Origin: Schmidtea polychroa
Lineage: Eukaryota
Assembly (NCBI GenBank): GCA_044892525.1
Contig: CM097888.1
Location: 92,628,001-92,692,000, forward strand
Length of the DNA: 64,000 bases
Direction of reading: 5' to 3'
The notes below the pieces were generated by a model. That model did not search any database. It saw nothing but the letters and a program-made list of their open reading frames with translations, and had not been told where the DNA came from. Both the position numbers and the translations under genes were made by a program. This document shows, piece by piece, positions 3,281 to 51,600 of this stretch; within the stretch, counting starts at the first letter, position 1; each line of letters starts with the position of its first letter.

Positions 3281-4210
3281 ATGTTTCGGTCTATGATTAA
3301 ATATTTTGTGCTGATTATATTCCTTTGCGGATATTTGAATGCGTCAAAATGCATTGACAGATATTGCGATATAACGCTGAATGCAAATAATGAAACGGTC
3401 TTTGATTGCTCCTTTGGCCAAATGGTTAATTCAACAGTCCAATGCGTTTATAACAAGCGCAATCAAATTATAACTCTGAGCACCTTCGATGATAATTATA
3501 TGTTCATAGATCGAATCGCTCCAGAAGCTTTCAATAGGCTCTTCTCTGGAATAGTTCTGGAAAAGATTTTCATCAATAAACTCCAGTTCAAATCCTTGAA
3601 CGGATCCGATTTTATGGCCCTATCAAATGTATCCAGTATCAAAATAGAAAATCCCATATCATTGGCATTTGATACGTTTCTAACTGTCACATCTCCTAGA
3701 AAGATTTTCTACTTAACGATATCGTGTATTAGTGGAAATAAAAACTCCTCATTTCAAGTCTTGCATTTCAGAACTCCAATGTGGAGAATATTCACTGAGG
3801 ATTGCCACAAGAAATTGGTTTGTCTTCATTCGACATGCAATTCTGCCAGGCTTGACAATATTGCAAAGGTTTCACCATCTACATTTTTTCAAGCTTTTCA
3901 ATTTCAATTGAGCTCTCACTCTTGTTTGTTGAATTCCTCCTGCAAATCTATTCAACATGAGAATCCTGTCAATGTTAAATCACCCAAACGTATCATAGTT
4001 GATGAGAAAGGAAAACAGGCCACCTATCCCAATACTGAGAAAGGGGCACACAGAGACAGTTATTATGACTTTTTAATGAATGTTTTATTGGTAATAATTG
4101 GCATTAATTCTGTCTTTATATTGGTAATCTGTGTCATTCTCATCGTGTGGAGGAGATCCATTTTGGCTTCCCTATCAACACGCAAACGAACATTAAGAAT
4201 TAGAGATTGA
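3281..4210 (+). CDS. Intronless type I membrane protein with degenerate LRR-like ectodomain (309 aa)
   Basis: N-terminal signal-like hydrophobic stretch (YFVLIIFLCGYLNA), Cys-rich cap, three LxxxxFxxL-like repeats (IAPEAFNRL, LNGSDFMAL, LAFDTFLTV), TM helix VLLVIIGINSVFILVICVILIVW, short basic tail; AATAAA downstream. Confidence 0.55.
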   Translation: MFRSMIKYFVLIIFLCGYLNASKCIDRYCDITLNANNETVFDCSFGQMVNSTVQCVYNKRNQIITLSTFDDNYMFIDRIAPEAFNRLFSGIVLEKIFINKLQFKSLNGSDFMALSNVSSIKIENPISLAFDTFLTVTSPRKIFYLTISCISGNKNSSFQVLHFRTPMWRIFTEDCHKKLVCLHSTCNSARLDNIAKVSPSTFFQAFQFQLSSHSCLLNSSCKSIQHENPVNVKSPKRIIVDEKGKQATYPNTEKGAHRDSYYDFLMNVLLVIIGINSVFILVICVILIVWRRSILASLSTRKRTLRIRD

Positions 4211-24600: not shown

Positions 24601-27600
24601 CTCCTTATTAACATGACCATACTGGTCACAACTCTATAAGGGTTACAGATATGGTCATTATTGCATTTAAACTACTATCACAACCTCCAATAATGTGATT
24701 TCAACATGTCTGCTGCGACACTGACACGCAGTGAGAGACGCCTCATAAAGCTCACAAATACGTTTTGCAGCTGATTTTCAGCAATGCATTCTATGCGATT
24801 AGGTCTCCGTTTGCAAGTCTCCTGAAATGCAAGGCTCGATCAATTCATATTAGCCCTTGTACCATATGAATCTCAAGGGATAAAATCTAGTGATCATGGG
24901 GCGATGCATTCAGTAATGAATGCGCCTTATTTTGATAAAGTGAACCTATTTTTGAAACTTGGCAAGTTCATGAGTAGAAGGTTCATACATGAACAATAAA
25001 CCCTAGAAAGCTCTTCAATTCATACGCAATTCAGTAACTAGGCGCCATGAACCTGACTAATGGGAAATATTTATAATATACAATCTAGAAGGATTCCGCA
25101 TGAGCAATAAGAGTAAATACGACAAATATATTATTCCCACCTCTACTCACGCTATCCAACTTCCCATTGTCCACCAACTGTTTGCAGATCTGACAATAGA
25201 TCTCATCTCGCAGCTCTGGAATTAGAATGCCATTTCCAATTATAAAATGCAATTTCTCTAAGTTTGAAGTCGGCCTCTCTTCTAATAAAGAACTCAAAGT
25301 CTTCGTATTCAGCGGATTCTCAGCATCCTTCAGATGATTGACAACTTCATCTGTGAACTTTGACTTCTTTTTCAGGGTTAAGGACACGATGTTCTTTCTG
25401 TTTGTCCTCATTGAGAGATTCTCGAATGGCATTCCATNNNNNNNNNNNNNNNNNNNNNNNNNNNNNNNNNNNNNNNNNNNNNNNNNNNNNNNNNNNNNNN
25501 NNNNNNNNNNNNNNNNNNNNNNNNNNNNNNNNNNNNNNNNNNNNNNNNNNNNNNNNNNNNNNNNNNNNNNNNNNNNNNNNNNNNNNNNNNNGCCTGGAGT
25601 GTAAAATAAATAAAGAATTACTATATTTAGAAACAGTATAAATAAAAATTACTGAAAATAAAAGATAGGTTTTATTAATTACTATTAATAGATTTAGGTA
25701 ATATATAGGAATATTTGATAATACTATTACTATATATAGTAATTATAAAATTACTATTAATATAATAAATAATTATAATGTGATATAAATACTGGTTCAA
25801 ACGAGAACCAAGGGACGATAAAAACATAGACGAGAAAATTGACGATAACTTGCGGACGAGAAAAACTGTCAAGAAAGTTCGAAAAGAAATTGAAACAATA
25901 ATTTAGAAAATTATTATCACTTTGAAAAAAAAACGAAAACGTGATTAGAGAATCACTGTGTTAATTATTTAATTTAGAAGTGCAACATTTACGATCAAAT
26001 TAGTTCATTATTGTGATTAAAGAATCACTGTGTTTATTTTAATTAATTTCAACGCAACTCCGAGTTGTTTAAATTGGATATAAACAATAGCCCACACACG
26101 AAGAAATTCCGGCTCCAATTTCAAATCAATATCAACGGAGAAATTCTACTATAAATTGATCATCAAATTAGTTGAGACGAAAAAAAAAGGAAAATCAGAA
26201 ATTAGTCGAGAGCTAAGAATATTGTCGTCACAGAATTGTAAAGAAGATTGGTCTACAACATTGTTTAAACATTCAGGTAGATTTGATTATCAAGGGATAA
26301 ACTAGTATCCCGTTAAATAGGTAAAATTAAAGCGAACACAAAGTATAGATCTTTTACTTTAGTGTTCCCTGGGAGCCTCAAAATCATTCCCTCTTACTTG
26401 CCCAACTCTTTTAGTCGAATTGCGATCGTTGTGCTACACAGGAGCCATCGATTTCTTGCAGGCTGTGGTAAACAGTAAGGATTAATAAATCCGTTTTCTT
26501 GTACTCTTTGTACATATATTATAAAGTTCGTTTTGTAAATTATAAAATACATATTTATAAACAGAGAAAGAGTTTGTTTTGTTTTTTTAACTCAGTAATT
26601 TAAATATTAAACGCGCAACCACATTAAATATAATTTATTTATATTCATTTATATCTTTTTTCATTTATTTAACCTATTGGAGTCATTTGTGTTAGGATCT
26701 ATTGTCCCCGTTTTTCGATCTTAACATTTTGGTGAGCCCGACGTGATCTAATTTACGGGGGGAATAAGAATTTTATTTATAAGAGGCAAACATCTTTTTG
26801 AATCATTGAGTTAAGAAATAGAAGGGTAATAAATTTAAGACCAGGTAATAGAAACCAGCAAATAATGGCAGAGATAAATAATTTACAAAATTTAAACGAG
26901 AATAATTTACAAAATAATAATGTGCCAGTAGCTCAACCACCAGCGGTAGATTTTATGAGATACCCAACAATTCCGATTAAACCATTTAGTGGAAATCCAG
27001 GGGAGTTTCCAGAATTTATGTCCGAATATTTTCAGTTAGCCAGAGCATTAGGATTCCCGGAACCGGTAATGATTTTGAGATTACCTTTATATTTAAAAGG
27101 GATGGCACGGGAAATATATAACGATGTTATAATAGCCGAGCATCCAGTTGAATGGAATGTATTACGATTAGCATTACAAAATAGAATATTACCGGGGGAT
27201 GCAACTAGAGTGCTGAGACAACAGTTTTATAACAGGCGACAAAATTCGGGTGAGCATGTTGGGGAATTTTCATATCAAATAATGATGTTGGCAGAGAGAG
27301 CATTTGGTAATAGGGCAGCCTGGAATGATGCAACTAGAGCATTAGTAAAAGATCAGTTTTGGTCTGGGTTATCGTCAGCAATGAGAAATGCACTCAGTTT
27401 ACACATAGGAGATAATTTAGAGGAATTAACTCGTAAAGCGTGTTTAATTGAGAGTAGCATTGAGAAGTCAAACAATTTTGCAATTAGTAGCAACAAGTCA
27501 GACATTGAGTGTTTTAATTGTCATAAAAAGGGACATATGTCAAAAGATTGTAAAAGTAGGAATAATTCTCCAGGGGACAAATTATGTACCAAGTGTGGGA

Positions 27601-30600
27601 GAAATAATCATGTGGCATCAAACTGTAGAATTTCGGACCTAAATTGTGAGAAATTTTGTGGAAAATTTGGTCATATTATGCGTTCATGTCCACAAAATCA
27701 GTTATCTAATAACAATGGTAGTGGCAACAATGGTAATAATCGATCAAAGCAGACAACGTTTGCAGTAAATTCAGACCACAAATTAACGTATTTGCAGCAG
27801 CTTGAATTAGAAATTCAAGAAGTAAGAAACAGGTTAGCAAGGCTAACAACAAATGAAACTGATGGGTACGATGAAAATGAAGGTGTTTATATGACGTCAG
27901 CCAGAAAAAGGCGAAATAAAAATAATTATGTAGAACTTGAAGTGTTGATGCTTCAAGAGAGTCCAAGGGAGGACAAAGAGGAAAAGACTATGGTCATGGA
28001 ACCAGAGGTCTGTGAGGGTTTACAGGTTTCACCCAGGAAAAATCTAGTGGCTGTGGCAATGGAGCCAGAAGCCAACAGAGAAATAGAAGGTTTACCGGTT
28101 TCACCAGTCAAAAATCGTAAGGCTATGGACATGGATCCAGTAGTTAATGAAATTGTTCCAACAGAAGTTTTGGAAAAAAGATGGGCTTCGGTCATTAAGC
28201 CGGAAGTTCTTCTAGCCACATCATCCATGCGAGGTGAGTGTGGTAGCGAACCAATAAAGGTTAGAGAAGCATCGAAAGAGGAAAGAAATCCCATCGATGA
28301 CTGTAGAAAAATACTATTACGCAAAAGCGTATGGCAAAGAGAAATGAGACAGAAATTAGAAAATATTCGTTTAAACCCTGTTAATGAGAATGAGGTTGAC
28401 AAAGTAATGGATATCATATCAGAGTTAGACAGAAATGAGGAATATTATCCAGAATTGAGAGAAATTCTGAGAAATATTGGCCTAAATTGGAAACAAAGAG
28501 AGAATCTGGAGGATTCTACCATTTTTGTATCTTTCCCAAAGGGTTGTTTTCGTAGATATACAATTAACCCAAGTGAAAAGGTAGAAGTATTGGCAAAGAG
28601 AGTTTCGGTGGTAAAACCTCAACAGAGATGCAAACTATACTTATTGGGAGAAAGATTATTAGAGGGAGAAACCTTGTTAGATTGTGGTATACTACCAGGG
28701 AAAAATATGGTTATAAAAGCAAAGTTTCACAAGGAAACTGTTACAGTAGTGGACTTGGATAATGTCCTTACTATAAGCGAGATTGAAATTGATCAATTAA
28801 ATCAAATATCAGCCGTACCACATAGATTGGGAATTGAACTGATGAAAAACCCAAGAGATGGGGAAGCCATTAAGATGATAATGGATTGGATACTGGAGTT
28901 GCGAATCCCAGTAGATACTCTTAGAGAGATAATGCCATTGGTGGTGCCTTTAGTAAAAGAGACATCACAATTCCAGACACAAGCAAAGATGCTGTTGATT
29001 AAAAATGGACATGCTATTAGACATTTGGAAGGTAGACAAGGTCCAGTGATGTTAGATATCAGGATACCCAGGAGAGGACACCTGATACAACAATTCTCAT
29101 GTTATCATAGGGTAAAGAAACTGAGAAAAAGGATATCAGAAATATTAAAAGAGTCATTCCTAATAATGATACATGGTTGTCAGGTGGATGACGACGAATT
29201 TCTAGTAGATGTTGGATGTTTTCCCAATGAGGAAACAGTTGTATTAATATTACTGGTAGAGTTTCCAGAGGATGAATGGGCAACTTTGAGATTGCCAGAT
29301 AATGCTGAAATGGAGGATGAAACAGTACATCCAGAGCGAAAACATTTAGACGGGAATACTCATCAGGAACCCGTAACTACAGTAGATTTAGATGAAGAGA
29401 TAGATAAATATCTCAAGGAACTTGATAACACTGAAGACGAGTTGGTCGAAATATTTCCTACAGAGGAAGATAATGAAGTACAATTAAATCGAGATGAAAC
29501 AAACATCGGAGCTAGTACATCGCGACAAGCCGAGCCACCAAGAGAAAGAGTGAGCCCGAAATTAGTAGAGAATAAAAAGAAAAGGGAGAGAAGGGGTAGA
29601 CCGAGGAAAAGTCAAATGAACCCACCTCCAAGAGAACTTCTAAAACCAGTTACAATACAAAATGTAACTAAGCAGGCTCTAGCAGGGATAGCTAGCCAAA
29701 TCGATAAAAGCGTTGGAGACGCTAGTGATAAAACGGAAACATGGAAAAGACTGAATCAAATCTTACGACTGATTAAGCCCGATTGGCAAATCAAGAAAGA
29801 TAAAAGTGTTAATGTTGACAAAATTGCAGAAAAAGTCAAGAAAGCTATGGAAAAGATTCCAGGAAGCACTACGGAACAGGAGATGTTCGAAATAGCAGGG
29901 CAATTCATAGATGAAGGCCTGACGAAAGGGAAAATGATAACGATTCTAGCCTTAATGTTTAAAAATGCATTGAGCATAATTAAAGATGATTCGTCGAAAA
30001 TTCCAGCAGCCATAGACAAGCTGACTGATATCATCGAAGTGAATTTCAGAACATGGATGACTGAGCACAAGTTTTGGGATATAAAAGAAACGAAAGGAAA
30101 ATATGAATTAAATGAAGAATTGTTGACAGAAAATATTTCAAGTAGTCCACGGGGAACAGGTGGATTTACTAGTTGGATGATGATGTTGTTGGTAATGATG
30201 GGAATACTGCGACAGACAAATTCCCTAACGGCATATGATTGTAGTGAACCAATACTATCGCGAATCTACTCATTAGTTGACACAGTGGAATGCAAGGAAG
30301 CATATCCAGATAAAGTTGCAAAAAGGGAAGACGTAGAATATCATGTTTATCAGCAAACAGAGTTTTACAGAACCAGAGTGAGGGAATGTCGAATACAGAG
30401 AGCGACGTTCGAATATTACTGTGGATCGAATAGTTATTCAGCATTTTTAGGAGCTAAACTCATTCCTATACCGTTAATCATCCCACCAGAGGATTGTGTA
30501 AATGCTTTCCGGTCAAAAACAGTCAAAATAGATCAGGAGGTAACAATTACCGCGGAAGAGGGGAAAAAGTTGGGTATAACTATTACCCGGGGTGGACCGA

Positions 30601-33600
30601 TAGCAGAAGATGGTTCTTGTCATGGTAGAAAGAAAGTTAGAGGTTCTAATGTAGTAAGCTATGTGGTAACAGTTGAGGACTACACAGTAGAGCTGATAGA
30701 GTACGAAGGAACTTTCGAAGTATCCACGGGAAAAATGATGTCTCATCCAGAATGCAACGTGAAATATGGTTATTGTAAAACCAGTTTAGCAGTATTAACG
30801 TACCAATCAATGAGAGATTTTTGTGATTTAGGATACCTGAAAAAGGTAGTATTTTCAAGGCTAGATGGGAAGAGTTTTACGTCTCAGGATTCACAACAAA
30901 GTGGTTGGGGAGACAAGATAACTCACAAAACGAAAAAGGAAGTAGTACCGGAGAAAAGCACAGCAGTAGTATTAGTCTCCAAGGACCCAACAGATGCAAT
31001 TCGTTTAGTCAGAAAGAAACAGACAACGAAATGTGGTGTACCAATATTTGAAACCAACTACAAGGGAATATACTTAGCATACAAGTATGTTCCAGCAGCA
31101 GAATCATTGCATCTATCAGATATTAAAATAGCCAAGTATATCAATAATAAGATTGATTTCTTGTATCATGATCTGCAGAAACAATTATTAGATGTCTATC
31201 AGGAAGTGATCCTGAACGACTGTCGTTTGAATCGGGAAATAATACGGAATAGATTAGCAATATCTATAGCTAATCCGGATCTAATAATGCCAATGTTGAC
31301 AGAGGAAGGAACATTCGGCAGAATTTTGGGCGAAGCAATTTATAGCTATCAGTGCAAAGCAATAGAGGTGGAAATTACCAAATATGATCGATGTACATTG
31401 GAGTTACCAGTGAAATATAAAGGAAAATTGAGATTCCTGATGCCAGTATCACACCAGCTATTAAAGGAGGATACCTCACCATTGACAGCAATTTGCAATC
31501 CAGCAATGTCACCATTATACAAAATTAACAATATTTGGATTTCGTTGCCAGATAGAAAACCGCCTTCAAAACCAGTTGAAGTGCTTCAAGCGACAAAGTT
31601 AGAAACTAAAATGGAGTTTCAACCATTAAACGAGATGTCAAAAGGAGGAGTATATACTCCGGAAGATATTGAAGAAGCTCGGAGAGCAATCGTATTTCCC
31701 CAAATCAGAAATAGGGGAGTGACGGAAATAATAACAAGAATCTATCAATCATATGATGGAAAACCGGACTATAACTTATTATTTGGACCAGAACATTATA
31801 AACAAGCTGCATCCAATGTAATACGGAAAATCTGGGGTAGATTTACAAGCTTTGGCATTTTTGTAGCAGGATGTTCAGGTATATATGCAATAGTGATGAT
31901 ATTGAAAATAATCATATCGCAATTATTTTCTACCTATAGTATCTTCAAGATCGGGGGATGGTCTTGGAAGTTGCTACTAGGAATGTGTCCAGTTTGTGCA
32001 GATTTTGCAGTATTTCATCATCATAATAAAGAGATTAAAAGAATGAAGAGACAAACTATAAAGAAGCATGAGTTAATAATGTATGAACCTAGTCATCGAG
32101 ACGATGACAATTCTGACGAGGGAGGTAACCTAGAGGGCTATGAGACTTCAGACAACACCTCAATAAAACCAGACAACAAAAAACCGAAATTTCAAAATTT
32201 TGAAAACAGTACTTTACAACAGTACCCTGTTAAAGCAAAAAGGAGGAAACGGCAGGAGTGGCCCGTAAATTACTTGTCTCCATACGAGGGTAGAAAAAAG
32301 ATAATACCAGAACGAGTTGAAGAGGAAATGTTAAAGAGGCTCGAGTTTAGAACGAATACAGATATATCACCATCTACCTCATACCCAACGTATAAAATGA
32401 AGTTCGAGACAATGCCACCCTTGGGTACATCAGTATTTGAGATGGTACCGAAATATCCATTTAGCACGTTGGAACGGCTAAAGGAAGAGTATAAAGATGA
32501 AATAAAATCAGAAAATGACAAAGATAGTGATGATCAACAAAAGTTCAGAGACAATATTCGAGGAATCTCAACAATATTAATGGTCAATATGGGTAAAAAG
32601 ACTCATAAACCTACGATTAAACTAAAAGTTAACAGGCATACGGTACATGCCATTATTGATTCAGGATCAGATTTGACATTGATCGAAGCAAATTTATTAA
32701 ATGAAAAAGAATTACAAGCAATAGTGCCGACATTACTTGTTGCATCGGGAGCAAATGGACAACCTATCAATGTTATCGGAACATTAGATTGCGAATTAAG
32801 GTTGTGTGATCAAAAATTTAGACACGATATCAAGGTCACTAGACAATGTATGGCAGAATGTATCGTGGGAATGGATATATTGAAAAAGTTAAAAGATATT
32901 GTATTTGATTGTGCAACAGGTGAATTAGTGAAAATGACTGGTAGAAAACGGAAAACCTACAGTGTGGATGTAGTGTTTTTGGATAGAACGGTGACAATAC
33001 CACCGAGGACCGAAACAGTTTGTTTCGTAGCAACACACCAAGAGGTGGAAGGAGATGTTATTTTCGAACCCAGTGAGCAGTTCGTAAATAGGTATAAAAC
33101 GCCTATGGTGCAAAACTTGGCAACAGTACGGGGAGGAAGGATCCCGATTAGATTAACAAATCTAGCGAGCAAATCATTGAGATTATACCCAGAGACTAGA
33201 GTGGGTAAAGTGATACAACTTTCTAACATGCAGAAAGAGCATGAATCGATATTAGCAGTAGAAGAGGATGAACGAGATCCTGATATCGAATATTACGACG
33301 CACCGAGCTGCGATAGTAAAGCTTTATCTAGAAAAGAAAATATCAGAGTCAATCAATTATTACGTAAATATGACCAAGTTTTCGCAAAACACGAATATGA
33401 CTTAGGGCAAGTTAATATTCTAGAGCATGAGATTAAATTAACAGAAAATAAACCGATAAAAATTCGCCCGTACAGAATACCTCAAAGCATACAAGGGTCC
33501 GTTGACAAACAAATTAATGCAAAAATATAATATAATCAGACCCAGTAAATCTCCATATTCCTCACCTTTGGTGGTTGTAGCTAAAAGAGACGGCTCAGTC

Positions 33601-36600
33601 AGATTATGTAATGACTATAGGAAATTAAATGAACAAACAGTTAGTGATAATCACCCGCTACCTTTGCTAGACTACATTTATGATAAAATGAAAAATTCAA
33701 AGTTGTTTACTGTGATGGATGCACAGAAAGGTTTTTATCAAATAAAGATGAGCGAAGACTCAATTCCTATGACAGGATTTTCTACAAGTAGTGATCATTT
33801 TGAATACTTAGTAATGCCGTTTGGATTAAAAGGAGCCCCTCCAACTTTTCAGAGAGCAATGAATATCATGTTGATGGATGCACATCACGCAATGGTATAT
33901 ATAGACGATATTATCATCTTCTCGGAAGATTTAGATAAACATTTGGAACATCTAGAAGACATTTTCAAAAGATTGATTATGGCAAACCTGAAAGTAAAGC
34001 CAAGCAAATGCAAATGGGCAGAATCGGAAGTGATTTACGTGGGGCATGTAATATCACACGATTGCGTAAGACCAGATCCGGCGAACACGGATAAAGTAAA
34101 GAATTTCCCACAACCAGTGAATGTAAAACAAATCAAAGGATTTTTAGGGTTGACGGGATACTATCGGAAATTTATACGAAATTTTTCAGCAATAGCTTTT
34201 CCTCTAACTACCTTAGAAAAGAAAGGTATAAAATTTTTATGGGGAGAAGATCAGCAACAGGCATTCGATAAGTTAAAAGATGCACTATGCAAACCACCAA
34301 TTCTACGATTTCCAGATTTTAAAAGACAATTCATGGTGATGACCGATGCATGCACAAGAGGTATAGGTGCCGTTTTGGGACAGAAAGACGAAATTGGCGA
34401 TGAGTACGCAGTAGCATATGCAAGTCGTGGATTGAAGCCACACGAAAAAAGTTATGCTGTAATAGAATTGGAAGCATTAGCATTAGTATTTGCAGTGGAA
34501 AAATTTAGTCATTACCTATGGGGCAGAAAGATAATTTTCTATACGGATCATAGACCATTGCAATGGCTGTTAAAACATAGGGATGAAGCATCAAAATTAG
34601 TAAGATGGGCATTGAGATTACAGCCATATAATATCGAAATAGTATATCGTAAAGGTAAAGCTAATGGTAATGCAGATGCATTATCACGAATGGAACAAGA
34701 GCCTGAGTTAGAAGATATAAAGGAAGGAAGATTAGAAGGAACAATCTTCATGCTAACAAGAGAGGCTAACACTTTGAGCGATATAGTAGAAGCGCAAAAA
34801 AATGATGACGAAATCAATATGATCAGACAAGCTATAGAAGCAAAGGCCATACCAAATGAATTTCAGAAATATTGGGAGAGACATAAAGATAAATTCATAT
34901 TGGAAGAAGGGCTAATCAAATACGTTGAATCAAGGGATAATGTAATATTAGTACCAAAGAAATACAGAGAATCACTATTATTACAATACCACGACGGAGC
35001 ACTGGGAGGACATCTCTCAGTTAGACATACACTGTCAAGATTAAAAATGAAATACTTCTGGCCAGATATGAAAGATGATGTTAAAAAGTGGTGTCAATCA
35101 TGTAAGATATGTATAACCAGAAGGAACACAGGCAGGAAACCACATGTTCCATTGAAACCAATGCCAGTACCGTCCTCGCCAATGGAGATGACTGCTATGG
35201 ACGTACTAGGGCCGTTTAAAGAATCAAAAATGGGAAATAAATTTATCATAGTATTTTGCGATTACTTAACCAAGTGGCCCGAAGCATTCCCAATTCCGAA
35301 TCATAAGGCAGACACAATTGCCAGAATCTTTGTAGAACAAATAGTATTCAGATATGGTGTTCCAACAAAATTACTTACCGACAGAGGAAAGGATTTCATG
35401 AGTAATCTGTTAAAAAGTATAAATGATTATTTTGGTATTTTAAAATTAAATACCTCACCATACCATCCACAGACGGATGGATTGGTAGAAAGGTTCAATG
35501 GAACCTTGGCAAACATGTTATCATCATACGTAAACTCAGGTCAGACGGACTGGGATGTACACATACCATCGTGTTTGTTTGCGTACAGAAATGCTGTTCA
35601 TTCAGTAACAGGAGAAACACCTTTCTATCTGATGTATTTAAGGCATAACAAGATGCCAGTAGATCTTATATTTTATCCGAAAGCTTCACAGAATTGTGAT
35701 GAGGAAAATTACTTATTCGAGATGAGAGAGAGAATGCAAGAAGCCTGGGAAAAAGCAGGTTTGAACATTCGTTATAACCAAGAAACGATGAAGGAATATC
35801 ATGATCGTAAAGCGAAGGATCATGGGTTTTTGGTAGGAGATTATGTCATGTTAGAAGGACATTACAACAAAAAAGGTTTATCTCCAAAATTAATGAGAAA
35901 TTACAAAGGGCCGTATCAAATTTTGAAAGTCACAGAAACAAATTTAGTCTTGCAGTTAGTGACAAACAGAAAAGCAGAACCGATAATGGTTCATGCAAAC
36001 AGATGTAAAAAGATAGCCCCACCAGAAAAGGAGAAACCAAAATCAGAAATCGATGAATTCGAAATAGATAAGAAATCGAAAAAGAAAACGTTGGAATCAT
36101 ACAAAAGTATCCTAAAAGGACAACCGGAACGATACCCTTTACGATCTCGGCAAGTACCGAAAACAGTTACATTTCTAGCAGTGATTAGTTGTGTTATGAT
36201 GATTGGACAAGCATTCGAGGTATTCACACCTAAAGCCAGTCAACATCCAGATATCGAATATCAACGAACAGATAGAGCGTTCAGATTTCATTTAACGAAT
36301 ATACAATGGCATAGATATGATTTATATTTGGTAGCTGCTGAAAGAGGGATATCATTTCACTTGAATACATGGGATCGAGTAAAAGTAATAGAAGGACTTA
36401 TGCCGAATACAAGTTATCTATTAGAAATCAAAACATTTTTTGCAGATCCAAACGTTTTTGCAGACGGAGGAGATTGTGTAGATAAAGCAGCATGGATTTT
36501 GAAGACTGCAAAATTTACCAAAAAAGTAGAGATTTCATATCTCGGGCAGATAGTAAGATTTACTCATCCACGGTGGAAAAGAAATGACACATCTTCCACT

Positions 36601-39600
36601 CACGATTGGAGGACGAATAATAAAATTGCGCTAATCGTCATATTAGAAAACGACCAGCGAGTCGAGAGATTAGTGCTCAACCATGCGTATCTAAGTAAAA
36701 GATGGAAAATCAAACCAGATACCGTGATAAAAGCGAATATTTCGTATTTGGAATTTACGGAGAGAACCGGTTGGTATACAATATATCAAGAAATAGTAAA
36801 TCTAATACCTCCCACAAAGGGAGAACTAACTAGCAAAGAAGGAAAGGCTAGATTAGTAAATATTCCTGGTTGTAAAGGAATAAATGCTTTAGATTGGTTT
36901 AGTATTAGAAAGGTAGCGAGTGTAAAACAGCCCCGCATAACTAAAATAATTAATAATTGTAGTTGTCAAAATACGTTAAAGGGGGCAGCGAGGGAGAAAA
37001 CGCCAACATGGCTATTGTTAATTATGATAGGGGGAGTAATTTGCATGATTTTAATTTTGCTCTTAACCACCCTATGGATGTTTAGATTAAATATACGAGA
37101 TATGCGTTATTGGGAAAATATTTACGAAACCGAGGTATAGGGGGAAAGTCTCACCATATACTAGGAAGTGTAAATATATATAGTTATTTATTTTATATAT
37201 ATGTTATTTATATTAGTATGTAGACTAATGTGGGCTCAAATGAGCATTGGTAAAATCAGACATCAGCGTATGTCGACTTTGGTTACCCTGCGAGGGTCTA
37301 TCACGAAAGTGATAAAAGCTGTTAATTATCTTATTTTTAGAAAAATGAATTATAGCAGAGAATCAAAGCCGCCAGTCAAGGCAAATCGACGACACCCATT
37401 AGCAACGTACAATTCCCAAACTCGAGTGGAAACTGAAGTGTATAGCACCTATAAAGAAGAGTATGTATATCGGTTCATCGGAACCACGGTAGCAGCAAAG
37501 ATGAATCACCTCACCTCAAACTATTGGTATTATCCCAGGAGAGTGGATATTCCAAATGACTTCAAATTTCCAGGAGGGCCTCGAAGGCAAATGATGGTAA
37601 CGGTTATAAATAACCAAGGTAGATTAAAATTGGCGGAACTATGTAGAGAGTATGGTTCAAGTCCGAAAGTAGAAAACATTTGGATCCATGCGATCAATAG
37701 GCCATTTACTGTGTTTATGGCGGGTTTAGAGCTACCTGTTGAATTAGAAAAACAGTGTACTCTGGAGATATACCACGCTGATGGACGAGAACGGAATATT
37801 ATGATCCAGGCAGCGGCGGTGGACACCATAATCGTAGTGGAAATCTTAGACTTCAGGAAACCATACTCTATAGTTAGCAAAAACGAGCCAACTTGGATTT
37901 ATAATGTAAATGAAGCTGATATACAGCAGTGTAAATCATTCGTGAGGAAGAAGTTAACCAAAGCCGAGGAGGATGAGGCTACAATTTTCATATCGGCAGG
38001 TTTTGCCAAATCCCGAATCGAATTGAAGGAGACAATTATCCAAATCGCAATTATGGATATGAGAGGAAATAATTTATTGAGTGCGATAGTGACTCCCAGA
38101 GATCCAGTAAAACATTACCAAACGCACCAATATAAGTTAAAAGAACCCGACATTAGAGGAAATCTCGATGAAGACGATTGTCATCATCTGATAAGAAAGA
38201 TCTGCGATAAGAAAATACTGGTAGGTATTTTACTTAAAGATCTGATCTCGGTAGCCAATCTACCAGTGCAGCGAATTTTGGGTATTCGTGACCTTTCGGC
38301 AAATAAACTATTGGAAACCAGAGGAGTCCCAAAGATCCATGGTCATTACAGTTTGGGATTCCTGACAAAAACTTTCCTGCGTACGGTTCCCGGAGAACCA
38401 AGGAATTTAGTGGTCACCAATGAGGCACTGGCAATACGTGCTGTTTATTTACATATCAGAAACGAATGGTTAGACCATATCACGATACCTCAGGAGGAAT
38501 TCATTTCCGCAACTACAGCAGCGATAGTTGAACAGGAAATGACGCAGAAGAGGAGATTACCTGAGCAACCATCTACATCAGAGCAACCCCAGCCCAAGAG
38601 GAAATCACCTGTGGATCTACCACCGCCTCCAGCCATATCTATTGGAGAAGAAGATGAATATGAAACATGTGCTAGTGAAATAGAGACAGCAAAATCACCT
38701 AAACAACCATCAGGAGCTGCCTATCAGCCAAAGGATAAATCGGATAATGCGGTCAGAAAAGAAAATCCAGAAGGAGGCAAGGTGAAAAAGATGTTAAAGA
38801 AAATGTTACCCATTAAAAGAGACAAATCGAAGTTAAAGTTGAAGAAAGTTGTTAAACCGTCGGAAGGAACGACAAAAGATACACCCAGCGGTTCGGAAGA
38901 TAGGACTATTAAACCTCAAAAGATATTCAGCGAACCAGATGATGACATTATGGAAGTTGCCTTTCAACCTCCGGTTAAGGAGATGCAGGAAGCAATAAAG
39001 GTTAAATCTGAACCTGTGGTAAGGCAGAAATTGTTAAAGATTGCCAAGGAGAATATCATCAAGAAACCAGTTTCGGTTGATGTGGACGGTTTCGAACCAA
39101 TGTGGTACAAACGTCCGGATAGTAAATGGAAACCCAGAGCGAAGGAGTATGACTGCCAACCAGTCACGAGAATGGCAGTCAATAATAACCAAAAATATGA
39201 TGTTTATGACGTAGACGGGATCCCTTACGTGGTGTCTACAGTCATATTAACAAGTGCTCTGGATGGTAAGCCTTTAGCAGTGAGTTTTGAGCCAGATGTC
39301 TTACAGAAGAGGAAGAAGAAGTTGTTGCAGCAATACGTCATTGCGAATAGCTACAGCACAAAGGAAGTGCACCTTTACAAAGTTCCAGACCCAGATCCCG
39401 ATGATCTGGATATCTAACCCAAGAGCGTTGCCACCCAACATGTGTCGTCAAATTCAAATGTGTACAAAATAACTTAACTATTATTTGAGTTGTGTTTTTC
39501 AGTGTTCTGACATTCATTATTTGTGATCTGAAACATTTATATTTTTTGTGTTTTGTCTTATTTGATTAATTTTTATGTTTTATTGTAATACTGTTTACGA

Positions 39601-42600
39601 AAAGCCTTTCCTTAGTCTTGGTTTTGTCTTGTTTTCGAGACGAAAATCTTTTAGGGGGTAAGACTTGTTAGGGATAGGCCTGGGGCCTGGAGTGTAAAAT
39701 AAATAAAGAATTACTATATTTAGAAACAGTATAAATAAAAATTACTGAAAATAAAAGATAGGTTTTATTAATTACTATTAATAGATTTAGGTAATATATA
39801 GGAATATTTGATAATACTATTACTATATATAGTAATTATAAAATTACTATTAATATAATAAATAATTATAATGTGATATAAATACTGGTTCAAACGAGAA
39901 CCAAGGGACGATAAAAACATAGACGAGAAAATTGACGATAACTTGCGGACGAGAAAAACTGTCAAGAAAGTTCGAAAAGAAATTGAAACAATAATTTAGA
40001 AAATTATTATCACTTTGAAAAAAAAACGAAAACGTGATTAGAGAATCACTGTGTTAATTATTTAATTTAGAAGTGCAACATTTACGATCAAATTAGTTCA
40101 TTATTGTGATTAAAGAATCACTGTGTTTATTTTAATTAATTTCAACGCAACTCCGAGTTGTTTAAATTGGATATAAACAATAGCCCACACACGAAGAAAT
40201 TCCGGCTCCAATTTCAAATCAATATCAACGGAGAAATTCTACTATAAATTGATCATCAAATTAGTTGAGACGAAAAAAAAAGGAAAATCAGAAATTAGTC
40301 GAGAGCTAAGAATATTGTCGTCACAGAATTGTAAAGAAGATTGGTCTACAACATTGTTTAAACATTCAGGTAGATTTGATTATCAAGGGATAAACTAGTA
40401 TCCCGTTAAATAGGTAAAATTAAAGCGAACACAAAGTATAGATCTTTTACTTTAGTGTTCCCTGGGAGCCTCAAAATCATTCCCTCTTACTTGCCCAACT
40501 CTTTTAGTCGAATTGCGATCGTTGTGCTACACAGGAGCCATCGATTTCTTGCAGGCTGTGGTAAACAGTAAGGATTAATAAATCCGTTTTCTTGTACTCT
40601 TTGTACATATATTATAAAGTTCGTTTTGTAAATTATAAAATACATATTTATAAACAGAGAAAGAGTTTGTTTTGTTTTTTTAACTCAGTAATTTAAATAT
40701 TAAACGCGCAACCACATTAAATATAATTTATTTATATTCATTTATATCTTTTTTCATTTATTTAACCTATTGGAGTCATTTGTGTTAGGATCTATTGTCC
40801 CCGTTNNNNNNNNNNNNNNNNNNNNNNNNNNNNNNNNNNNNNNNNNNNNNNNNNNNNNNNNNNNNNNNNNNNNNNNNNNNNNNNNNNNNNNNNNNNNNNN
40901 NNNNNNNNNNNNNNNNNNNNNNNNNNNNNNNNNNNNNNNNNNNNNNNNNNNNNNNNNNNNNNNNNNNNNNNNNNNNNNNNNNNNNNNNNNNNNNNNNNNN
41001 NNNNNNNNNNNNNNNNNNNNNNNNNNNNNNNNNNNNNNNNNNNNNNNNNNNNNNNNNNNNNNNNNNNNNNNNNNNNNNNNNNNNNNNNNNNNNNNNNNNN
41101 NNNNNNNNNNNNNNNNNNNNNNNNNNNNNNNNNNNNNNNNNNNNNNNNNNNNNNNNNNNNNNNNNNNNNNNNNNNNNNNNNNNNNNNNNNNNNNNNNNNN
41201 NNNNNNNNNNNNNNNNNNNNNNNNNNNNNNNNNNNNNNNNNNNNNNNNNNNNNNNNNNNNNNNNNNNNNNNNNNNNNNNNNNNNNNNNNNNNNNNNNNNN
41301 NNNNNNNNNNNNNNNNNNNNNNNNNNNNNNNNNNNNNNNNNNNNNNNNNNNNNNNNNNNNNNNNNNNNNNNNNNNNNNNNNNNNNNNNNNNNNNNNNNNN
41401 NNNNNNNNNNNNNNNNNNNNNNNNNNNNNNNNNNNNNNNNNNCAGCTTCCTCTGCAGCTTTCAAAATGTCTTGCTTATTGAACTGTCGGCCAAGAGATTG
41501 ATATATTTTTGTCATTATAGGAACTGAATTCGCTTGAGATGTCTGACTCTGGTTCACCAAAGGTTCAGGTAGATCTTTCATAAACCTCAGAATGGCTATC
41601 CACACTGCCAGTGCTGACTAGAGAAGAAGATATTAAAACAATCATATTACTGGACTGCAATATATATACTATTTGATGGTTGGGGTTCGAATGAAACAGC
41701 AAAGGTTTCCTTAAAGGTTTTCGTGAGAAATTCGGATCAGAATCCTTCTGGAAATAAGTGGCAGCAAATTTTGTGAATGTGAATTCTGAGACGTCCTCAT
41801 CGAGAATGTTGACCAAATAATCAGGCATCGTTGTAGCAAATACCGAGCTGACATCATTGAGAGCGTTCATCCGTGACATCTCCAGATCCTGGAATGCTCT
41901 CGGTGCATGGGACAATGAATTTGAGAGAGATTTCACGCTGTAGCCATCAATCGAGCCGAAAATCTCATCAAGCTAAAATAAGAAAAGAAATCAAATTTCT
42001 GTGGAAATTTCATTCTAGTTCAATTAGGCGTTGTCAGTAATTTGATTCAGTGTCCATGAATTATTAATGAAATCAAGCTGAATTATGAATGAGCAAGAGT
42101 TGTTTTACCATCTCTGATTCATCCACTGGCTGGTTGCGCCTCCTCTCTGCCTCTGCAATCCTCTGTTTCATGTTCCTATTGTCCTTGATTTGCTGCTGGG
42201 CCTCTGCTAGTGACTGGCTGTGGATTGCATTGAGCCGCACCTGAATTGCAATATACAGCATCATCACTCGGCATCCTTGCTAGAACATTTCATAGCTACT
42301 CAAGCATTACAAGAAACCAGGAAAAGAGAAAGTACGCCAACAAAAGAAATAAAATCACCGAATTTTTATTTCAAATATCAAATGTTAAATGAAATCATTT
42401 ATTTATTAGTGAGACTGGAGGGGAAGCTTTATGAATTTGGTTGTACTTTCTGTTATTGTTAGGCACTTAATGCCCCTATATAACTGAGAGCCCCCCCCCC
42501 CACCCTCCCCTCCTCCTCCGTTCCTTATATCAATGCTACATGGGAAATTATCAGTAGAGAATCCTTTGATAGAAATCTGTAACGGAGAAAATGTTTTTAT

Positions 42601-45600: not shown

Positions 45601-48600
45601 TATGTAGTGTGAATGGGTATGGTGTGAATGGGTAAGGTGAATAGGTAAGGGGAATAGGTAAGGTGAATAGGTAAGGTGTGAATGGGTATGGTGTGAATGG
45701 GTATGGTGTGAATGGGTAAGGTGTGAATGGGTATGGTGTGAATGGGTAAGGTGTGAATGGGTAAGGTGTGAATGGGTAAGGTGTGAATGGGTAAGGTGTG
45801 AGCAGGTAAGGATTGAATATTTTAAGTGATTTATTAAAATGATTTAAAATCAATTTTGAAAGTAAATAATTAGAATTATGAATAACTTTTTGTTAAATAA
45901 ATGTGAAATAGTAAAATAATGAATTCTTGTGATAAATGACAGTGATCAACAGCCCAAATGTATCAGTGATGAAATCAGTCAATTAGAACTCATTTTCTAT
46001 GCCATTAACAATGTTGTTTAGCTCTAGATTTTGTGATACAGTAACTTTTACTTTTCATATACATTGGGTATATTTTTGTTTCAGTTGTACTTGGTATAGC
46101 AGTCCTACACGAATTTCCTGCCGGCGTTATGACATTTACTGATTGGATATCTTCCTCTCTTATCAATCAGTCACAGACAGGCTTATGAATTGTCTATGAG
46201 TTTTCGTGCCAGTTAGCATTCATTATCTCCAAATGCCTCGAAAGTGTGTAAATGGCACTGATAACAGTTATTATGTGTGCGATAAAGTGAAATTTGCCAG
46301 ACAGAAACGTTCTCTAACTCCAGTAATTAGGAATGCTTATCACTGTTATTTTGGGTGCAAAATTGAAAACCAAGATAAAAGCTGGCGCTACATATTTATT
46401 GCAATACTTTTGCTTTTAACCTCCACAACTGGCTTAATCAATGAGTTCAATGCCTTTGCTGTTCATATGATAAGGAGAGACCCAACCAATCATGTCACAG
46501 ACTGCTATTTTTATATCGTGTCATACCTACAGCACGGAATGTCCAAGAAGAAAGAATTTATTTATTTATTTTTTTCAATCAAAAATATTTCAGTCAAAAT
46601 GTTAGCCAATGGAAACATTCAAAAAAAGTTAGATTTAACGAAGCAATTCTCATTATAAACAGACGGCCAACAATACACTAAAGAAGAGATCAATGAAATC
46701 AGTGCCGGATTTAGATCTGATAAGGCCCTAGGCTATTTGAAATATGGGGCCCTTTATAAGACCAGATATAATATCTCAGCGCCAAATATGATTTTTGGAT
46801 ACCTAGAGAGATAAACTGAAATACAATTAAGAATTATAGATAGTGAAATAATAAATCTTTAATTTAAAATCATTTTAATTCATAACAAACTTAAAAATGC
46901 AAATTCTGATAAAAAGAAGCAAAAGATCTTTTAAAAAAACAATATACAAAGGCTTATTATCTAATCTCTTGAAACATGCTATGAGAATTAAGGAATTATA
47001 TTAAACTGAAATATTTTCTTTCTTGCCTTTGCCTGAGAAAAGTCACTGAGGACATCATCGAATGATAAACTGTGTAGTTTGTCACTTTCTATACACATGA
47101 GAGTAAGCGAACATAATTTATCTTGAGTCATTGTTGTTCTAAATTCAGAAGCTGTAGAAATTTATCAGTATTCTCGGTTGTCATAATTATGGCTAAACAA
47201 ACCCTAGACACAATAGCGCTTTGCCTTTGTTCTTCGAATTGACGTCCTAAAAGAATTGGATGAAGAGTATAGGACGTTTCAAACATGCGGCAGTAGGAAA
47301 AATAATGCTGCAGTATATTTAGGTCGACATGACAATTTCTCATTCGGACACTTTTTGGGGCCCTAATAAAGTAAGGGCCCTAGGCTATAGCCTGTGTAGC
47401 CTATACGTAAATCCTACACTAAATGAAATTATCAATATGATTTGTTGTTATTGACCTTGAGAATAACTTTTAAAAATTAAAAAATAATAATTTAAAATAA
47501 TATAGAAAAACAATATAATTTTAAAAGATCAAAAGGATTTAAAAATCAAAATAGAAACATTTTTAATAATATTTAAATTGAGTAAATAAATAGTTATTGG
47601 CAACTATATTTTATAAATATTTTAAGATAGTATTTATTAAAATTGGTTTCTATGAGCTAATTATAGAAGCCCTTTAAAAATTTTTCTAATTGAGTCGTTT
47701 TGAATTTTAAAGGATATTTAATTATAATAACATTTTTAAATNNNNNNNNNNNNNNNNNNNNNNNNNNNNNNNNNNNNNNNNNNNNNNNNNNNNNNNNNNN
47801 NNNNNNNNNNNNNNNNNNNNNNNNNNNNNNNNNNNNNNNNNNNNNNNNNNNNNNNNNNNNNNNNNNNNNNNNNNNNNNNNNNNNNNNNNNNNNNNNNNNN
47901 NNNNNNNNNNNNNNNNNNNNNNNNNNNNNNNNNNNNNNNNNNNNNNNNNNNNNNNNNNNNNNNNNNNNNNNNNNNNNNNNNNNNNNNNNNNNNNNNNNNN
48001 NNNNNNNNNNNNNNNNNNNNNNNNNNNNNNNNNNNCCTTTTGCTGCAAATAATGTATTTAATGAAAGAATTTTCGACTATACGATAGTCCTTGTCAATCT
48101 CCTGGAATTTAGCAATGTTCTTCTTCAAAATACCCTTCAATCTTTCTTTTATTTCCTTTCTCTTAATTCTCATTGGTTGTAAATATACTGAATTGTTTTA
48201 CTAAAAACTTTTAAAATTTTTTTATAATTTTTATTTTTTACATTTAAAATTTCAAAATGACACAAACTAAAATTTTTAAATTTTTTACAGCTTCTATAAT
48301 TAGCTTCTAGAAGCCTAATAAAATATTTGAAAATATTCTAAATAAAGCCTCCAATAACTACTTATATATGCTATTTAAATATTTCAATAAATGTGTCAAT
48401 TTTGATTTTCAAACCCTATTTTTTAAAATTTTTTTCTATATTATTCTAATTATTACTTTTTAATTTATTCTTATTTTTTTAATTTCTTTGTATATTGTCA
48501 GTTATTCTCAAAGTCAATGACAACAGATCAAATTCATGATTTCATTGATTTCTTCTTTAGTGTTGATCTTTGGCTGTCTGTTTATTATGAGAATTGCTTC

Positions 48601-51600
48601 TTTGATTCTGACATTTTTCTTTTGGATGTTTCCATTAGCTATGATTTCTATTGAAATATTTTTTCTTTCCTCTGTTGGCTGACACTGCCGGAGATGTCTG
48701 CCCAACGAGGATGTTCCACCAGGATCTAGATGTTCTTTAACTCTTTGGTGCAATGTCCTGAGGGTACTTCCAATGTAGATTTCATTGCATACATTGCACG
48801 TGATGCAATAGACGATGTTTTTTCTAAAGCACATATCTTTCGGTGTCTGGCAGTTTTTCATTGTGCAATTGTTTTCTCTATTTATGTTGCCTGCCAGAGC
48901 CCTTCTCAATGTCCAAGATTTATGTGCTATCCGAATTGGAAGACCGGTACGTTTAAGTTCTTTCAGGATCTTGAAGTCGAGTATGTCACTGATGAATGGG
49001 ATATTCAGATAGAAATATTTCTGATTCTTTTGTGTTAATTCCCTAGATCTTCTTGGGGTAGAATTCATTTTTTCAATGTCCTCACTTTGGTATCCGTTTC
49101 GTTGTAGGATTTTATTGAAATTTGATTGCTCTTTAAAGTTTTCGTTTTTCTCCGTGCATCGATTGGCTATTCTTCGTTTCTCGTTTCTTATGACATGTAC
49201 TTTCTGTAAGTATGGAAGCGCTGATCTTTGGTGCATAAATATTTCTTTGCGAGCTGGTTTTCTGTAGAACCCGTATGTTGGAGTATTTTCTTCTATTTTG
49301 ATTCTCAAATCCAATAAATTGAGGGATCCATCTTCTTCCGGATATTCGATTTCGAACTTAATATCTTGATGAGCCGCATTGAATGAATGAAATATTTCCT
49401 CCGCTTCTTTTCTGTTTTTGGTCAAGATGAAGATATCATCTACATATCTTGCATAGAAACCGATGGGTTGTATGGTCCTCAGTGTCTGTCGTTCGAGGTT
49501 ATCCATAAAGATGATTGCTAGCAGTCCTGATATGCTAGAACCCATAGGCAGACCTTTAACTTGTTTATAGATATTTTGTTCAAAGGTAAAATAGGTGTTC
49601 TCGAGGATAACAGTAAGTAGTTTGGTGATATTCTCGATATTCATTTCCTTTATTAACAAGTTGCTTTCTCTTAATTTCTTTTCTAAACATTGAATAGCCT
49701 CTTTTGGTTCCATAGATGTGTATAGTGATACGACATCAAGACTAAATGGGTATTGGAATTCTCTATGACAAGTCATGTTATTATTTAGTCTTGTCATGAG
49801 GCAGTCGCTGCTTTGAAGATGGTGTGGTATCGTGTCCAATAAAGGTTTCAAGATCTTTGCAAGGAGCCAACTTGTTTTAGTTGTTGGTCCATTTTTGTTG
49901 GACACTATAGGTCTAATTTTGATACCAGGACCCTCTTTGTGAGTTTTAATTAGGTGGTAGAAGTTAGGAAGATCAGAATTTTTTGTGACGAAGCTGTTGG
50001 TTATTCTGTTGTTGAGCCTCATTTCCAAAGCTATGGCTTTCCATACTTTGTTGATCTTCATTTCGATGGTGTTTGGTGACATGCGGCTGACTTTCTTGTA
50101 TGTTTCGATGTTGCCGAGGTGTTCGTAACCAGCTTCACAGTAACGATTCTTCTCTATAATGCAAAATTCTCCCCCCTTGTCACTTGGTAAGTAAACGTAC
50201 GGTTTCTTTTTAAGGGATTTTAATATTGCCTGTTCGTCTTTCGTTAGGTTTGAGAGATATGGTTTTCTTCTTTCCTTCTCAACTAACTCCATGATTTTGT
50301 GACAGACCTTTGAGAGTGTTGAATCTAATTCTGCATCAGGATTTGGTTGATAGAGTTTATCTGTGTTTATGTATACTACTCTCATTTTCATGAGATATTG
50401 TATTGTTCTATTTGATCTGGTACGCAATGCGACTGACAATATACAAAGAAATTAAAAAAATAAGAATAAATTAAAAAGTAATAATTAGAATAATATAGAA
50501 AAAAAAATTTTAAAAAATAGGGTTTGAAAATCAAAATTGACACATTTATTGAAATATTTAAATAGCATATATAAGTAGTTATTGGAGGCTTTATTTAAAA
50601 TATTTTCAAATATTTTATTAGGCTTCTAGAAGCTAATTATAGAAGCTGTAAAAAATTTAAAAATTTTAGTTTGTGTCATTTTGAAATTTTAAATGTAAAA
50701 AATAAAAATTATAAAAAAATTTTAAAAGTTTTTAGTAAAACAATTCAGTATATTTACAACCAATGAGAATTAAGAGAAAGGAAATAAAAGAAAGATTGAA
50801 GGGTATTTTGAAGAAGAACATTGCTAAATTCCAGGAGATTGACAAGGACTATCGTATAGTCGAAAATTCTTTCATTAAATACATTATTTGCAGCAAAANN
50901 NNNNNNNNNNNNNNNNNNNNNNNNNNNNNNNNNNNNNNNNNNNNNNNNNNNNNNNNNNNNNNNNNNNNNNNNNNNNNNNNNNNNNNNNNNNNNNNNNNNN
51001 NNNNNNNNNNNNNNNNNNNNNNNNNNNNNNNNNNNNNNNNNNNNNNNNNNNNNNNNNNNNNNNNNNNNNNNNNNNNNNNNNNNNNNNNNNNNNNNNNNCT
51101 TTCAAAAAGAATTTTAAGAAATTGGCTTTTAGTTGTTTGAATTAATTCCGTCAGATCGGCATTGAAGAAATCTCGGTTTTTCTCCAGGAATCCCTCAATC
51201 TGATAATGGACGACTCCCGCAAAATGCTCTATTCCAAATATCTAGAATATACGATTCTCTCGACCCGATCAGTAAATAAAATTTACTTTGACAATGTCTG
51301 CCTTTTGCTTGATGAACCTTGAATGCTTGGAGCAAGTATTGACGAGTTTATTGAGAAGCGAGTGATCTGTGCCTTTGGGGAATCGGCTTTCCTCATCGAT
51401 CAGCGCGAGAATGTTGCAATTCCTCACACCGATCAAGTCCAATGTTTCCTGATTGTCTGTGAATGCGATATGTTGCCAGTCGATCAGTTCTGCTGCGTAT
51501 TCCTCTTGCTCCATCTTGAATATGTGCCGAACGAAGAACTGCTGGAGATTCTCATTTGCGTAATTTATACAAAGCTGTTCGTAGCTGTTGTTGTCGAAAT

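Follow-up and report, generated by a model that had tools for sequence, protein, structure and literature searches.

A conserved accessory gene, likely spliced, in a Ty3/gypsy element of Schmidtea polychroa appears to encode a beta-helix protein with an ISG20-type pseudo-nuclease that may bind RNA

A stretch of 64,000 nucleotides from the planarian Schmidtea polychroa (contig CM097888.1 of assembly GCA_044892525.1, positions 92,628,001 to 92,692,000; called the window in the following) contains an open reading frame, ORF3 (37345..39417), for which an earlier note made from the sequence alone had proposed a probably inactive exonuclease in the position normally taken by env. This raises the question what ORF3 encodes, and what a mobile element might do with a nuclease that has lost its active site. 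ORF3 is carried by an LTR retroelement of ~15.2 kb (~25573-40819), all features of which are given here on the + strand. Its 5′ LTR (25573..26726, ~1154 bp) and 3′ LTR (39666..40819) form a direct repeat with an offset of 14093 bp, the start of the 5′ LTR being inferred from the 3′ LTR (25438-25591 is N) and the end of the latter also being inferred (N from 40806). Both LTRs are identical over 1121 of 1121 comparable bases, which indicates a very recent insertion. The primer-binding site, starting with TGG 3 nt past the 5′ LTR (26730..26747), is one that we take to be tRNA-Trp-like; an identical site is present in the related family B described below, and its 15-mer occurs 1807 times in the genome. 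A polypurine-tract-like stretch (39653..39664) lies ahead of the 3′ LTR. The element runs antisense to a myosin VII-like gene and is flanked by exons of it, with the junctions themselves consisting of N.

The front of the polyprotein (26865..33530, within an open frame at 26802-33530) comprises Gag with CCHC knuckles, a ubiquitin-like and a Bcl-2-like segment, an envelope fusion glycoprotein and an aspartic protease. Pfam searches of this part yielded PF00098 (E 2e-8), PF24664 (E 5e-81) and PF00077 (E 6e-7), together with weak ubiquitin-like (E 0.006) and Bcl-2-like (E 0.008) matches, both below the cut-off. Reverse transcriptase (RT), RNase H and integrase were assigned by Pfam to the polyprotein rear (33460..37140), which ends in a predicted membrane protein. 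The order from protease through RT and RNase H to integrase, together with the LTRs and the primer-binding site, identifies the element as Ty3/gypsy. The env core (30939..32099, membrane anchor at ~31857-31913) is of the class III, mononegavirus/gB type and corresponds to a Monjiviricetes-type fusion glycoprotein (PF24664); it lies between gag and protease, in frame with pol in sister copies, so that the idea of ORF3 having replaced env or standing in its place has to be rejected. ORF3 follows pol, the position of env in insect errantiviruses, without itself being env. An insect-errantivirus-type env within ORF3 is ruled out by hydropathy as well, since the highest 19-residue value of ORF3 (1.81 in the window, 0.5-1.6 in four relatives) is below the values of the two membrane anchors of the element (2.3-3.1). 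Between integrase and ORF3, a type I membrane protein with a signal-like segment, ectodomain, transmembrane segment and tail is predicted from hydropathy (36166..37137). It yielded no Pfam or PDB match, and its tail ends in E-T-x-V in six of seven aligned rows, the seventh of which stops early. In the window copy, the stretch joining protease and RT contains a frame break at ~33.5 kb. Env and pol are found in a single frame of ~3300 codons in all four near-identical sister stretches examined (L107-L110), so the window copy is broken at this point, and ORF3, counted as the third ORF in the earlier note, is really the second gene of the unbroken element.

The stop-to-stop frame of ORF3 spans 37174-39417 (747 amino acids), and the ATG at 37345 gives an accessory protein of 690 amino acids with no membrane segment. 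This is in accordance with the ORF previously noted, and all window peptides quoted for it are present. The acceptor-like site that had been placed 4 nt before the ATG was found as well (TTATCTTATTTTTAG at 37326-37340); it is a T-rich stretch followed by TAG, with its AG at 37339-37340, and constitutes a putative splice acceptor. An AG within 2-5 nt of the ATG, which occurs in shuffles at a frequency of 4-6% per family, is present in A1 (TAG) and A2 (CAG), the subfamilies of the window element's family A, and in the related families C (CAG) and D1 (TAG), and in A1, A2 and C this acceptor is the sole YYYAG within 200-376 nt. D2 contains TGTAG, which is not YYYAG, near the ORF3 ATG, and B1 and B2 have no YAG within 8 nt of it. 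The strict YYYAG acceptor count is four of seven families, the TGTAG alternative having been added after inspection of D2, and since the families are not independent, this recurrence counts as roughly two separate observations. Upstream of the acceptor AG, A1 and A2 share no conserved frame, which supports 37345 as start. A candidate splice donor (CAG/GTAATA, 26842..26851) lies 20 nt ahead of the gag ATG; its CAG/GT is kept in six family-A copies, and family B has no clear equivalent. A search for a retrotransposed spliced copy gave no exact matches in the genome, with the search by full-length matches covering the best 40 only. These signals suggest that ORF3 is likely to be expressed from a spliced mRNA, with trans-splicing, which occurs in flatworms, or an internal promoter being possible too.

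When the window ORF3 and its parts were searched directly against Pfam and PDB sequences, nothing relevant was obtained, and its relationship to exonucleases became apparent through sister elements. Scanning the genome for PF00929 gave ten matches. One is an ERI1-like gene of the host; the other nine are copies of elements, which align to ORF3 at ~22-27% over the main stretch and whose surroundings have the identical gag-Ubl-Bcl2-env-pol architecture (RT identity 54-55%). A wider genome search yielded 1278 candidate copies, of which ~150 were scored, giving the families B, C and D. ORF3 of family B scores 27 bits against PF00929 (cut-off 24) and matches ISG20L2 (E 9e-7) and ISG20 (E 3e-6), and a joint profile reached E 4e-13. 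When 10 sister ORF3s of B, C and D with intact sites were combined into a profile, the window ORF3 matched it with 87.7 bits (E 8e-27, residues 66-384), compared with 3.3 bits for the best of 200 shuffles. The assignment of the window ORF3 to PF00929 is thus indirect, by way of the sister score and this profile match.

In ESM Atlas features, PF00929 clusters were found at 0.93-0.95. An AlphaFold model, which was built on a 14-row alignment including intact sisters and therefore leans on intact homologues, has a pLDDT of mostly 75-90 in the exonuclease domain, compared with 32 for a single-sequence model. With this model, ISG20L2 was the first (E 4e-7, TM-target 0.76) and ISG20 the fifth (TM-target 0.74) Foldseek match, ISG20 was at the top in VIA (Z 15.6, rmsd 3.7, 161 aligned), and SDN1 was a further structural neighbor. 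An RNase H-like DEDD fold, whose absence the earlier note had regarded as speaking against its reading, is therefore predicted. The domain, at 37978..38484 (ORF3 residues 212-380), has a predicted DEDDh fold of the ISG20/REXO4 type, in which the active site is degenerate, in line with the REXO4/ISG20 domain first recognized at 37981-38469 (residues 213-375). Among known proteins, ISG20/ISG20L2/AEN/REXO4 (PF00929; PDB 1WLJ, 7YW5) are the best sequence-profile and structure matches, with 14-18% identity between ORF3 and ISG20-type chains in structural alignments. REXO4 itself was not among the PDB matches, and REXO4 and ISG20/ISG20L2 are not separable as source. No host donor gene was found in the PF00929 genome scan, which misses intron-split genes. 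A set of 5.8 billion proteins contained no ORF3 match in a word-seeded, length-limited search that provides no evidence of absence, and IMG/VR contained no ORF3 relative.

The active site differs sharply between the families. Relative to the sisters, the ExoI residues D and E are changed to S217 and G219 and the ExoIII His to L355/N354 in the window ORF3, just as the earlier note had suspected for ExoI DxE and the ExoIII His. For the ExoII acid, the ungapped register gives L300, with D299 one position earlier, and the ExoIII D position is E360 in the BLAST register or a gap in the MAFFT register; family A keeps at most two acids, of which one is off register. The full D-E-E-H-D set is absent from all 42 family-A rows: S217 is present in 40 of the 42, and 38 share S217, G219, D299, L300, N354, L355, N359 and E360, the others being two with a one-site difference and two misaligned by frameshifts. 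For family B, 28 distinct places were compared (37 rows less 9 duplicates), and D-E-E-H-D is complete in 20 of them; it is likewise complete in all 16 C/D rows, a set picked for long ORFs. The sisters thus have E instead of the D of ISG20-type enzymes at ExoII; as they have the ExoIII His and match ISG20-type chains, a DEDDy type is ruled out. The intact active site of the sister clades had been missed by the earlier note. According to a study on ISG20, one catalytic mutation abolishes its RNase activity (PMC9157404), and as a single such change suffices there, the family-A nuclease is likely inactive, judged by its sequence. Some residual activity may be retained via D299/E360 near the pocket. 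The net charge of the exonuclease domain is +8 and +6 in family A versus 0 to +4 in five intact families, part of this gap being the lost acids. The window ORF3 is very probably a pseudo-DEDDh exonuclease.

Despite these losses, the exonuclease domain of ORF3 is under purifying selection. It is better conserved than any other part of ORF3, with 89% identity between A1 and A2 (dS ~1.8) and a dN/dS of 0.036-0.039 (bootstrap 0.016-0.081), values that are approximate as dS is near saturation. The corresponding identities are 77% for the beta-helix domain described below, 58% for the linker and 79-82% for the C-terminus. The uncorrected pN/pS of the exonuclease domain is 0.093, close to that of env (0.062), while the linker has 0.30, and no sign of positive selection on ORF3 was seen at the domain level. 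The earlier note had also considered that ORF3 might be decayed in sister copies: all 690 codons are intact in 14 of the best-scoring 30 copies, the window copy included, and the other 16 of these are truncated. With fold match, lost catalytic residues and a dN/dS of ~0.04 together, its proposal of a pseudo-nuclease stands. The RTs of A1 and A2 are 99-100% identical, and pS is 0.67-0.78 in ORF3 versus 0.17 in RT; a near-saturated ORF3 beside a near-identical RT suggests that modules were exchanged by recombination. The trees of RT and of ORF3, both unrooted and with long branches meeting, agree in separating A from B/C/D, fully supported in each case, and between the clades ORF3 accumulated ~5.2 and RT ~1.0 changes per site, a difference of about five times. 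The simplest history is one capture followed by loss of catalysis in clade A, where the direction of the active-site change rests on cellular outgroups, the ORF3 tree being unrooted.

The N-terminal part of ORF3, previously considered unrecognized, is predicted to be a double-stranded beta-helix of the cupin/AlkB type (37537..37857, residues ~65-171). In VIA it resembles ALKBH1 (Z 10.3), ALKBH6 (10.1), a cupin (9.1) and JmjC (9.0), as well as pirin chains, with these matches (Z 9-10) tied among themselves, and Foldseek returned cupins (E ~1e-4), including the CENP-C cupin, which is a metal-free dimerization domain. The confidence of the model is moderate (pLDDT ~53-72 at residues 81-170, <50 before). 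ESM Atlas gave no usable match for this domain, and profile searches gave weak Pfam hints, namely DUF7881_N (E 5e-4) in two of seven and Cupin_3 (E 0.06) in one of seven. Metal binding by cupins and 2OG-Fe(II) oxygenases involves an HxH or HxD motif and a distal His. Neither HxH nor HxD is present at the expected strand in any family, the seven aligned rows containing one invariant His only, so the domain is probably not an oxygenase. The exonuclease domain is followed by a linker (38485..39069), which is acidic/proline-rich at first and rich in lysine further on (residues 480-600 have a net charge of +13), the latter part possibly serving nuclear or nucleolar targeting. The small, unassigned C-terminal domain (39070..39414) has 17-21% identity to B/C/D, with a weakly similar hairpin-like motif.

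Since most of the cutting residues are lost and selection nevertheless preserves the gene, ORF3 is likely to hold RNA instead of degrading it. On balance we favor a conserved accessory gene, likely spliced, encoding an RNA-binding ISG20-type pseudo-nuclease joined to a beta-helix. The common ancestor would have carried an active 3′-5′ exonuclease, of which clade A would have lost catalysis and retained the RNA-binding cleft. As a separately expressed, soluble protein, ORF3 would then hold structured RNA or RNA 3′ ends, with the beta-helix acting as interaction or dimerization module. The RNA held would most likely be the transcript of the element itself, which ORF3 might shield from, or route past, host decay and small-RNA silencing. 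According to PMC5785220, RNA is bound by inactive Exo domains in Exuperantia, and Egalitarian can dispense with the catalytic residues. Exuperantia is also a structural neighbor of ORF3 (Z 10.0); both proteins are encoded by cellular genes of separate origin, so the likeness is a functional analogy only. RNA binding by ORF3 is probable, and the element's own RNA as its main target is a more tentative suggestion. Fold conservation by itself does not show what ORF3 binds.

The main rival explanation is a host-directed decoy, as the earlier note had proposed, in which the dead domain sequesters either small RNAs of the host or proteins that partner with one of its nucleases, REXO4/ISG20-like or piRNA-trimming, and in this way weakens silencing in trans. 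The element does have other candidate host-modulating cargo in its sub-threshold Bcl-2-like and ubiquitin-like segments, the divergence of ORF3 between the clades outpaced that of RT about fivefold, SDN1 is among the structural neighbors, and an arenavirus DEDDh ExoN suppresses innate immunity (PMC7968707). We nevertheless consider this unlikely, given that no sign of positive selection was seen at the domain level, that no host target emerged, and that an active nuclease, which the higher-copy sisters keep, would destroy small RNAs better. A bolder reading, rather unlikely in our view, would have two coexisting clades of enveloped flatworm retroelements share a captured ISG20-like protein, as nuclease in one and as dead RNA-end clamp in the other, the dead form being a suppressor of piRNA or RNA-decay defense that is spliced like a complex-retrovirus accessory gene.

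ORF3 might also be a protein scaffold, with two dead enzymes serving as interaction surfaces, for example in capsid/RNP assembly or nuclear import, and with no binding of nucleic acids. In family A, neither fold has its catalytic or metal ligands, Foldseek matches include the CENP-C cupin and the linker is lysine-rich, but the exonuclease domain is basic and its conservation exceeds that of the beta-helix domain (89% vs 77%), making a pure scaffold quite improbable. Still less probable is a nuclease that remains active through a rearranged site built on D299 and E360. Both residues are kept in at least 40 of the 42 family-A rows, and Maelstrom keeps the fold without DEDD (PMC7968707) and reportedly uses other residues; against this, neither the ExoI acids nor the His are left, and the alignment shows no replacement Cys/His tetrad. 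The lack of direct Pfam or PDB matches and the 16 truncated copies might finally be taken to indicate a decaying relic or a chance resemblance, for which almost no room is left by the score of 87.7 bits, where the best shuffle reached 3.3, by the dN/dS of ~0.04 and by a 690-codon frame kept despite near-saturated synonymous divergence. Neutral decay is rejected by the same dN/dS, the pN/pS of 0.093 and the sister-profile match.

Elements with parts of this architecture have been described before. Flatworm GAG-ENV-POL errantiviruses of the HSV/gB type, including Smed_errantivirus_4, were reported by Chary and Hayashi (eLife 2026, PMC13524379). Smed_errantivirus_4 resembles the window element in having env between gag and pol, in its size of ~15 kb and in being multi-copy, and over the first 100 residues of its listed segment, a comparison by eye with the window env shows 73 matches. 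The terms exonuclease and DEDD are absent from the main text of that paper, and exonuclease, DEDD, ISG20 and RNase_T from seven supplements; the parts covered give no description of the ORF downstream of pol. The giant gypsy element Burro/GYPSM1 of planarians is described with Gag, Ubl, BCL2, mononegavirus-like env and protease in one frame (PMC6431247); the window element shares this front layout and the presence of accessory ORFs, and the section on Burro there names no exonuclease. Burro proper (>30 kb, MATH/BIR/ankyrin cargo) is ruled out, as the window element is half the size and has no MATH, BIR, ankyrin or dUTPase match. The gag-env-pol layout as such is therefore already published for Burro (PMC6431247) and flatworm errantiviruses (PMC13524379). 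Likewise, DEDD ORF3s are known from LTR elements of bdelloids: according to PMC5408684, Juno/Vesta LTR retrotransposons and Terminons carry a DnaQ-like exonuclease as separate ORF after pol, whose motif is also DEED. Those are intact, RNase D-like DEDDy enzymes in env-less lineages, and their accessory exonuclease activity is stated there as yet to be demonstrated (PMC5408684). The window ORF3, in contrast, is ISG20-like and DEDDh, fused to a beta-helix, located beside env and dead in one clade. Within the literature covered, which takes in few subscription papers and neither Repbase/Dfam nor bioRxiv supplements, no ISG20-like or pseudo-nuclease ORF was found in planarian elements, and neither was a fusion of ISG20-like DEDDh and beta-helix with live and dead clades beside env.

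One genome thus holds a natural matched pair, consisting of an intact DEEDh form with hundreds of candidate copies and a dead form maintained by selection. As RNAi and small-RNA sequencing are routine in this host group, the roles of catalysis and binding are directly testable. The published GAG-ENV-POL layout of errantiviruses would also be extended toward the plan of complex retroviruses with a separately expressed regulator.

The retroelement (about 25573–40819, forward strand) has exons of a myosin VIIa-like gene on both sides of it (about 14.5–52 kb, reverse strand), with a match to PDB 3PVL at an E-value of 9e-10. The insertion may be intronic; its junctions with the flanking sequence read N. 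Additionally, the window contains a reverse-strand RT ORF of 645 aa with a GIY-YIG-like end (48514–50451), which is flanked by 604-bp inverted repeats with 99% complementarity, the complete unit (47838–51098) being Penelope-like by appearance. A second, small and broken Ty3/gypsy element, whose short direct repeats lie at positions 16242 and 19687, is located on the reverse strand at about 16.2–19.8 kb. The forward strand carries an ORF of 309 aa (3281–4210) that starts in a signal-like manner and has a hydrophobic segment at the C-terminus, as well as an exon (7611–8165) with a putative resemblance to the small subunit of DNA polymerase delta. Tandem repeats are present at 23.1–23.9 kb (42-bp unit), 44.5–45.9 kb (13–15-bp unit), 52.2–53.2 kb (51-bp unit) and 56.1–57.2 kb (about 149-bp unit).

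At its end, the polyprotein of the retroelement contains a predicted second membrane protein (36166–37137, forward strand), which is also present in the related copies L055, L091, L093, L095, and L096. Identity between families is only about 20%; in six of the seven rows of the alignment across families, the last four residues are E-T-x-V, a terminus compatible with a class I PDZ-binding motif. The ectodomain displays fibronectin-III-like patterns as judged by eye, and searches of Pfam and PDB yielded no match for it.

Deleted, tandem and satellite forms were found in the searched genome, G000. Three family-A copies near one another on C1 (L052, L053, and L054) have an internal deletion and are devoid of env and pol, the retained gag through Bcl-2-like region being fused to the ORF3 region. 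On C2 (100.87–100.91 Mb), three family-A elements form a tandem array with a spacing of 14218 bp, probably with LTRs in common. C3 harbors dozens of tandem repeats (about 106.49–106.52 Mb and 107.05–107.22 Mb) with a unit of about 2.87 kb, and each of them contains the 3′ half of the sequence for the exonuclease domain of ORF3; these repeats are a satellite derived from the ORF3 gene.

Subfamily A1 (the window element) was compared with A2 (L049 and L051). Synonymous divergence amounted to 0.17 for RT, 0.21 for RH, 0.52 for IN, 0.49 for env, and 0.67–0.78 for ORF3. Divergence thus increases along the element, which suggests that accessory modules were exchanged by recombination; the ORF3s of D1 and D2, subfamilies of a sister family, are mosaic as well.
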